From Candidatus Pyrohabitans jungbluthii (GTDB lineage Archaea > Hydrothermarchaeota > Hydrothermarchaeia > Hydrothermarchaeales > BMS3B), in contig MTMD02000015.1 in assembly GCA_002010065.2 (NCBI GenBank), positions 1 to 64,000 on the forward strand: a stretch of 64,000 nt of DNA, in the 5' to 3' direction. The translations under genes were made by a program, and so were the position numbers. Each line of letters starts with the position of its first letter. Positions within the stretch are counted from its first letter, which is position 1. This document shows, piece by piece, positions 34,881 through 35,661 of this stretch. The notes beneath the pieces are model-generated. The model saw nothing but the letters and a program-made list of their open reading frames with translations. It did no database searches and was not told the DNA's origin.

Positions 34881-34912
34881 AACTGATGAAAAACTACAAG
34901 AAGAGTATAAAA

Positions 34913-35126
34913 ACCGGATTTGAGGTCAAGCGGTTAAACCTTAAGGCACGCCTCAAAGGCTTACCCTTTTTAGGGGGCAAACCTCTTTAGCATTGCCTAT
35001 CAGGTACACAGCCCGGCGAACAGGTAGCTGTCCCGCACCTTCACTCCCAACCCGGGTTTCCCCGAATGAGAGTGTCGGGCAAAGACGAGCGCCCTGCCGA
35101 ACTGCCCGCTTGATTTCCTCTCCGGT
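34913..35126 (-). ncRNA. Unassigned 214-nt structured RNA closed by a canonical bulge-helix-bulge (candidate circular RNA precursor)
   Basis: 5' ACCGGA-GAGG-AAA-UCAAGCGG pairs with 3' CCGCUUGA-CCUC-AAA-UCCGGU; internal helices with many G-U pairs and a GAAA tetraloop; BRE/TATA ~25 nt upstream; T-rich tract downstream. Confidence 0.75.
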
Positions 35127-35148
35127 GGAATAAATATTGTATTAGTCG

Positions 35149-35164
35149 CATAAATAGTTTTCGG
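35149..35164 (-). promoter_or_regulatory. BRE + TATA for the BHB RNA
   Basis: CCGAAAAC-TATTTATG on the minus strand, placing the start site at about 35126. Confidence 0.6.
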
Positions 35165-35378
35165 TTGATATTTATTACTCCTAGGAATCTGAAAGTGGGG
35201 TACGTAGATTATTTCGCCTAACTGAAGAGAGCATATGCCCAAGCTTCCTGACAGAAAGACAGGATGGGTAATCAGACATGTAACCTAGCCTTGGATCCAA
35301 ATGTGCAAGAGCTATAGAATCTCCTCAGAGTTTGAAGGGTTTCTCATCCCTCGAATGGTCAATCGCTCTGTTTTTATA

Positions 35379-35661
35379 TTACTGCTCTGGCTTTATCAGA
35401 AGAAACTGCTTTCCCTCTTCCTCTTTTACCTTTTTAAAAAAATCGCAACCCATGCAGGTTAGTTGCTTCTCAGCAAAAGTCCCCTCCCATCGCAGAATGT
35501 ACCACTAACTGCCCAGCAAATCCTACCCCCGTTTTTTCCCCATTCAATCCATCATAAGAGGTATCAACTGCCGCAGGGCACACGCCGAATTCAGTTACCT
35601 TTGTCCCTCCTGGATGCCTACCACAATTCTTGAATTCCCAACAATTTTGCCGGTGTATCAT
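35379..35661 (-). pseudogene. Frameshifted two-CW (Cys-rich) domain gene
   Basis: Three consecutive frames give NCWEFKNCGR...VCPA / KNGGRICWAVSGTFCDG / GTFAEKQLTCMGCDFFKKVKEEEG; two frameshifts are needed. Confidence 0.75.

Follow-up and report, generated by a model that had tools for sequence, protein, structure and literature searches.

What kind of RNA is encoded by a 214-nt element that matches no known family and whose two ends pair into a perfect bulge-helix-bulge, the motif cut by the archaeal endonuclease EndA? We addressed this question for positions 35126-34913 on the minus strand of a 64,000-nt stretch of DNA from the uncultivated hydrothermal archaeon Candidatus Pyrohabitans jungbluthii (contig MTMD02000015.1, positions 1 to 64,000; referred to below as the window). 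The element is an RNA gene closed by a bulge-helix-bulge, and we consider it probable from its sequence that the gene specifies a lineage-specific, independently transcribed RNA which is excised by EndA and circularized by the ligase RtcB to a product spanning 34920-35114.

On the minus strand, the gene begins with ACCGGA, GAGG, AAA, and UCAAGCGG (35126-35106) and ends with CCGCUUGA, CCUC, AAA, and UCCGGU (34933-34913), followed by four more T residues. When these ends pair, the outer, central, and inner helices comprise 6, 4, and 8 bp, respectively, and there is one AAA bulge per strand, each located 3′ of its own strand of the central helix. All 18 pairs of the closing motif are Watson-Crick pairs, with no G-U among them. 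A first-pass annotation of the window had proposed this minus-strand closure of 6 bp, 3 nt, 4 bp, 3 nt, and 8 bp, and it was confirmed by reading of the sequence and by the minimum free energy (MFE) fold of the 214 nt, which contains the motif. Two opposed 3-nt bulges, exactly 4 bp between them, the correct 3′ polarity, and stable flanking helices of 6 and 8 bp together make up the canonical motif of EndA substrates. The rule for archaeal EndA is cleavage between the second and third nucleotides of each bulge, and the circle predicted by this rule (34920-35114, 195 nt) has the same bounds as the one suggested in the first-pass annotation. The locus is composed as follows.

35164-35157 and 35156-35150, minus strand: putative promoter, consisting of a transcription factor B recognition element (BRE)-like sequence, CCGAAAAC, and the TATA box TATTTAT (from position and conservation).
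35115-35126, minus strand: predicted 12-nt 5′ leader, made up of the outer strand (35126-35121), GAGG (35120-35117), and the first two A residues of the bulge.
35116-35114 and 35113-35106, minus strand: 5′ bulge AAA and 5′ strand of the inner helix, UCAAGCGG (from sequence and fold).
35007-35105, minus strand: domain 1, an irregular long hairpin (from fold and covariation).
34934-35006, minus strand: domain 2, a long arm of 28 pairs, with a 4-nt single-stranded joiner ahead of the inner helix (from fold and covariation).
34933-34913, minus strand: 3′ half, with CCGCUUGA (34933-34926), CCUC (34925-34922), AAA (34921-34919), and UCCGGU (34918-34913) (from sequence and fold).
34920-35114, minus strand: predicted excised and circularized 195-nt product (from the EndA cut rule).
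34909-34912, minus strand: T-run directly past the outer helix, a putative terminator (from position and conservation).

The minus-strand 214 nt fold with an MFE of −117.9 kcal/mol, compared to −76.4 ± 4.5 kcal/mol for shuffled sequences (z = −9.28), and none of 200 shuffles was as good. Folding of the plus strand gave a weaker structure (−83.6 kcal/mol, z = −4.25). Inside the 8-bp helix lie two domains, a hairpin (35105-35007) and an arm (about 35006-34937). Domain 1 consists of a 10-bp basal stem, a 3-bp helix, an invariant GA/AA internal loop, and an apical stem that carries a GAAA loop in the genus of the window genome (genus 1) and is shortened in the sister genus (genus 2). The helix 35105-35097/35016-35008, the GAAA-capped hairpin, and the long arm that had been recognized by eye in the first-pass annotation are all present in the MFE fold, but the domain described there as multibranch is a single irregular hairpin, and the sole junction of the RNA is a three-way junction at the inner helix. 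The internal loop of domain 1 (5′-GA-3′ opposite 5′-AA(A)-3′; 35075-35076 with 35040, RNA positions 51-52 and 87) is invariant in all homologs and is flanked by covarying stems; it may bind a protein or take part in a tertiary contact, and it does not correspond to a standard kink-turn. For the predicted 195-nt circle, circular folding gave −98.5 kcal/mol, and the predicted junction ...CCUCAA^AUCAAG... would cap the 8-bp helix with the 7-nt loop CCUCAAA. No open reading frame (ORF) was conserved among the 10 homologs checked, as expected from the earlier statement that the element holds no credible ORF; an 80-codon frame starting with TTG in the window is absent or different in the other nine.

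Full-length homologs with 89-90% identity were found by BLAST in all four other genomes of the genus. In genus 2, one genome (G009) gave matches at both RNA ends, and two (G005 and G007) gave matches at the 3′ end only. The homolog set comprised 11 sequences, 10 of which are distinct (seven from genus 1 and three from genus 2). The genus-2 copies are 186-197 nt long, and identity between the two genera is ~60-65%. Each of the 11 sequences forms the 3-4-3 closure (3-nt bulge, 4 bp, 3-nt bulge) in its own MFE fold. The first-pass annotation had proposed to check homologs for retention of the bulge-helix-bulge and for compensatory changes, and both were found, with the motif retained in all 10 distinct sequences and two-sided changes in 34 of 85 pairs.

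This number was obtained with a model-fitted alignment of the 10 distinct sequences, in which 95.2% of 816 cells pair. In 500 shuffles, 17.9 ± 2.8 pairs changed on both sides and none of the shuffles reached 34, and sliding of the partners by 1-3 columns left only 3-11 two-sided changes. The changes are spread over the structure, with four of the six outer-helix pairs, two of the eight inner-helix pairs (17:203 and 19:201), 13 of the 39 pairs of domain 1 (helices 4-6), and 15 of the 28 pairs of domain 2 (helix 7). For a plain MAFFT alignment of seven sequences, RNAalifold likewise predicted 85 pairs, 24 of which changed on both sides, including outer pairs 1-4 (four of six) and inner pair 17:201. 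In none of the 10 sequences is there a change in GAGG/CCUC of the central helix, in AAA of the 5′ bulge, or in nucleotides 1 and 2 of the 3′ bulge. As the third, variable nucleotide of the 3′ bulge would be discarded, the predicted junction loop CCUCAAA would be identical in all homologs.

To determine the distribution of the RNA, a covariance model of it was run on 38 genomes of the phylum. It detected the RNA in seven of them, i.e., in the window genome, all four congeners, and two of three genus-2 genomes, and did not detect it in three genus-3 genomes or in 27 genomes from the other 11 families, many of which are incomplete. Among the phylum genomes scanned, the RNA is thus confined to two of 21 genera, both in one family of the Hydrothermarchaeota. 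Pattern scans gave 25 stretches in metagenome contigs, four of which were real, and 19 stretches in genome contigs. Five of the latter were real by the model, all from Hydrothermarchaeota, and 14 were chance matches (six were inspected). These scans revealed no true match outside the phylum and none in viral contigs, and BLAST searches of phage and plasmid collections gave no match to the RNA. The locus is single-copy in its genome. In both genera, purC is always the tail-to-tail neighbor of the gene, which in genus 1 is also located downstream of metG. The upstream genes differ in genus 2 (a weak OB-fold match, PIN, and DUF429), leaving purC as the only conserved neighbor. Beside purC, a synteny search of genus 3 and of three further families found protein-coding sequence at this place and no diverged homolog.

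The position of putative signals around the gene supports an independently transcribed unit with a conserved promoter and T-runs. A putative BRE/TATA occupies −38 to −24 relative to the start of the outer helix in all seven genus-1 sequences. The 15-mer composed of CCGAAAAC and TATTTAT is identical in six of them and has one change (A for C) in the seventh (L007), and in all three genus-2 sequences the box TAATATTT is found at the same distance. T-rich runs start 0-15 nt past the outer helix in 10 of 10 homologs. The BRE-TATA and the downstream T-tract reported in the first-pass annotation are therefore present and conserved in both genera; that they act as promoter and terminator is deduced from where they stand. 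With both signals at fixed positions, the primary transcript is predicted to start and end at the motif. The genome also encodes the two enzymes required, namely RtcB (566 bits) and a single EndA of 165 amino acids with an N-terminal and a catalytic domain (121 bits). The size of this EndA is that of the homotetrameric type, which needs a strict motif.

We also scanned the whole 1.99-Mb genome for the same geometry (outer helix of at least 4 bp, 3-nt bulges separated by 4 bp, inner helix of at least 4 bp, span of 24-400 nt). When G-U pairs were allowed, 14,499 matches were obtained, and the candidate was the only top scorer without G-U. When only Watson-Crick pairs were allowed, 89, 60, 19, 9, and 7 matches had 12, 13, 14, 15, and 16 bp, respectively, and the single match with at least 17 bp was the candidate locus with 18 bp. 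Six dinucleotide-shuffled genomes contained 0, 0, 2, 0, 3, and 1 matches of at least 17 bp. The scanner also recovered a very long canonical motif of the same polarity exactly flanking the 23S rRNA (C14:177073-180224 around 177124-180174; 23, 4, and 14 bp), which serves as an internal positive control for the orientation. The letters of this motif are AGUG/CAA and CACU/GAU, which indicates that EndA does not demand GAGG/CCUC and AAA. The 16S rRNA is flanked by GGUG/AAA and CACC/AAA with a U.U beside the central helix (by eye) and thus has a near-canonical motif.

From these data we infer the following maturation route. Transcription would be driven by the gene's own BRE/TATA promoter and ended by the T-run. 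In the resulting 214-nt primary transcript, the 12-nt leader and the ~7-nt trailer would pair into the closing motif described above. The single-subunit EndA would cut past the second nucleotide of each bulge, and RtcB would join the new ends, which would be kept together by the 8-bp helix. The predicted product is a 195-nt covalently closed, highly base-paired RNA with the 7-nt junction loop CCUCAAA. This circle would be the form in which the RNA functions, and its most plausible role in a thermophile is that of a stable scaffold for protein binding or regulation.

Several observations speak against this proposal. The covariation alignment of the 10 sequences was fitted to the model and leans towards it, and the homologs fall into two clades, so that the compensatory changes represent few independent events. 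The central helix and the bulges never vary and hence provide no covariation evidence; another constraint could explain their constancy. In one of the three genus-2 genomes (G007) the gene is largely missing, with the last ~24 nt left beside purC, which may be due to deletion, to replacement of the gene, or to an assembly artifact. This loss, together with the failure to find the gene in genus 3 and the other 11 families, suggests that it is dispensable and young. None of the sequencing runs listed for the locus is an RNA run. Finally, an 18-bp motif is not rare on a genome-wide scale, as the shuffled genomes gave 0, 0, 2, 0, 2, and 0 matches of at least 18 bp. Because one such motif per genome is not improbable in itself, the case rests on context and conservation. 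What exceeds chance is that the exact geometry is kept in all 10 distinct homologs and is accompanied by compensatory changes in its neighborhood.

The strongest competing explanation, although in our view an unlikely one, is that the RNA stays linear and that the two A-rich bulges, together with GAGG/CCUC, bind a symmetric protein or make a tertiary contact. The motif would then merely look like an EndA substrate and be shielded or left uncut in vivo. It would account for the fact that the motif core (GAGAGGAAAUC, UGACCUCAA) is sequence-invariant in 10 of 10 homologs, which goes beyond the known needs of EndA given the different letters of the 23S motif, and for the quasi-symmetry of this core, with GA before and UC after each half. 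The runs listed for the locus include no RNA run that would contradict it. Archaeal EndA, however, recognizes its motif by shape and in any context, and a small RNA that exposes such a motif in canonical form at its end could hardly be shielded from it. EndA cleavage has been described even in the 5′ untranslated region (UTR) of an mRNA (PMC7714728). Moreover, the putative promoter and terminator hug the outer helix, as described for the Thermoproteus precursor of the signal recognition particle (SRP) RNA.

EndA cleavage might also do nothing but define the ends, the mature RNA being linear because it is never ligated or because it is circularized and then re-opened elsewhere, i.e., permuted. 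The motif itself cannot discriminate between these outcomes and circle formation, and circular intermediates of pre-16S and pre-23S rRNA are described as re-linearized in several archaea (PMC12918454, PMC7758197). We nevertheless regard this outcome as quite improbable, since the 8-bp helix keeps the ends adjacent and thereby favors RtcB. Furthermore, no second processing site is apparent, and excised motif-bounded introns as well as the Thermoproteus SRP RNA are described as persisting in circular form.

It is very improbable that a known RNA is present here as a degenerate or permuted copy, be it an RNase P-like RNA, an SRP RNA, or an H/ACA or C/D guide. With Rfam 15 at gathering thresholds, the whole window gave only two tRNAs (41550 and 57200), far from the locus. 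With an expectation value (E) of ≤ 10, the 451-nt segment 34800-35250 gave four chance-level matches, the best of which (E = 0.29) was to a human long noncoding RNA family on the opposite strand. At five homolog loci, nothing overlapped the RNA. The Rfam check on the linear sequence that the first-pass annotation had recommended hence matched no family at either the window or the homolog loci. The canonical genes are located elsewhere in the genome, with 193.3 bits for RNaseP_arch (contig C8), 218.6 bits for Archaea_SRP (contig C2), and 91 bits for 5S rRNA, which bears out the earlier failure to match the element to SRP, RNase P, or 5S RNA. Its placement outside tRNA and rRNA genes also stood, as the two tRNAs named above are the only ones that ARAGORN and Rfam list for the window and the rRNA operon lies on contig C14.

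Individual candidates were rejected for the following reasons. GAGGAAA with a long-range helix recalls the CR-I/P4 region of RNase P, a resemblance supported by no covariance model; RNase P (types A, M, and T) was rejected because there was no covariance-model match at E ≤ 10 and the canonical gene is present on C8. No SRP match was found at E ≤ 10 with the sequence scanned in linear order, and the canonical Archaea_SRP gene lies elsewhere. Domain 1 of the genus-2 copies loosely resembles an H/ACA RNA in having a lower stem, loops, an upper stem, and a GA-containing loop. However, a 3-bp helix (helix 5), two pairs of which covary, occupies the would-be pocket, and an ANA box is not conserved, as its place is taken by AUA, GUA, or GGA, a trinucleotide that is itself engaged in pairing. 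Kink-turn and C/D readings of domain 1 were rejected on inspection by eye. An intron of a tRNA or rRNA gene was rejected because the locus lies inside neither gene type and ARAGORN detected no tRNA or transfer-messenger RNA in the predicted circle.

Equally improbable is a domesticated or decaying mobile intron of rRNA- or tRNA-intron origin without present function, which would fit the narrow range (two of 21 genera), the loss in one species, and "exons" without evident function, but not the single copy, the same place by purC in both genera, the conserved promoter of its own, the compensatory changes that preserve the structure at ~60-65% intergenus identity, or the lack of matches in phage, plasmid, and viral collections.

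Some further observations were made in the surroundings of the gene and in the genome. A 63-amino-acid ORF with the motif CWEFKNCG...CP lies between metG and the RNA (window 35470-35661, minus strand) and has no Pfam match. By tblastn it was found in the genus-1 lineages L005/L025/L064 and L007/L020; the search did not find it in L006/L030 or L050, in which ~70 nt separate the end of metG from the RNA. Upstream of the putative promoter, the window contains a noncoding spacer of ~300 nt (35165-35469), which is absent in some congeners. At the G007 locus (L010, G007:C24 ~1133-1512), ~380 nt upstream are without an ORF of at least 80 amino acids, and a universal-stress-like ORF lies beyond. In its intron mode, ARAGORN predicted tRNAs with long introns at C2:215068-215305 (148 nt), C6:2902-3123 (132 nt), C2:171290-171429 (50 nt), and C14:22737-25279 (2452 nt), which are probably partly false; ordinary introns of tRNA-Met and tRNA-Trp were also predicted.

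Known substrates of archaeal EndA are tRNA introns, pre-rRNAs, the HVO_1309 leader, and the Thermoproteus SRP RNA. In the literature searched, which included PMC12558985, PMC7714728, PMC4731332, and PMC12918454, only these four kinds were encountered, and no stand-alone RNA of the present type without an assigned role; further intergenic circles bounded by the motif may be contained in the circular-RNA tables of PMC12558985 and PMC7714728. Judged by its sequence, the RNA of the window is a new RNA family and, with the processing predicted here, a new variation on a known maturation route. A more far-reaching proposal, to which we would give slightly less than even chances, is that this is the first archaeal gene with an EndA/RtcB circle as its only product, an "intron without exons," and would found a new class of dedicated circular noncoding RNAs in which the CCUCAAA loop created by ligation is the active site, e.g., by pairing with GAGG-type ribosome-binding sites or by protein binding. 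If circularization by EndA and RtcB holds true, the tRNA-splicing machinery would serve archaea as a general route to dedicated circular RNAs, and the gene would offer a compact natural scaffold with a 12-nt leader, a 7-nt trailer, and a cargo of 195 nt. Its narrow distribution in two genera limits the reach of this conclusion for now.

Among known systems, the permuted SRP RNA gene of Thermoproteus is closest to the proposed maturation of this RNA. That gene has a TATA box 26 nt upstream of the start and a 23-nt leader that forms the motif together with the trailer, and its precursor was cleaved by EndA in vitro and gave a circular product (Plagens et al. 2015, PMC4731332). Like it, the gene in the window is a stand-alone noncoding RNA gene with an upstream TATA box whose leader and trailer pair into a bulge-helix-bulge, the circle being a prediction in our case. 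The junction of the Thermoproteus circle is described as a hairpin loop, and the same is predicted here. The two differ in that the Thermoproteus RNA is a recognizable permuted SRP RNA in which circularization restores helix 8, whereas the present RNA matches no known family, shows no sign of permutation, and coexists with a normal SRP RNA gene elsewhere in the genome. In addition, the Thermoproteus EndA is described as a relaxed heterotetramer; here a single 165-amino-acid subunit is combined with a strictly canonical motif.

The 3-4-3 geometry is shared with the processing stems of archaeal pre-16S and pre-23S rRNA, and AAA bulges also occur at the 16S flanks. The rRNA motifs, however, are part of long stems of a polycistronic precursor whose circle is usually an intermediate, whereas the gene described here is a monocistronic unit of 214 nt. 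Circular tRNA introns, among them the tRNA-Trp intron with its C/D-box guide, offer a further parallel, in that here too a functional small RNA would be freed and circularized by EndA and a ligase. These introns are hosted by tRNAs and their exons are the main product, in contrast to the 12-nt and ~7-nt "exons" of this gene, which have no evident function. In Haloferax volcanii, EndA acts on a substrate other than tRNA or rRNA, the motif-bounded intron in the 5′ UTR of HVO_1309, which was found as a circle (PMC7714728). This intron is described as lying inside an mRNA leader and is not an independent structured RNA gene, unlike the present locus.
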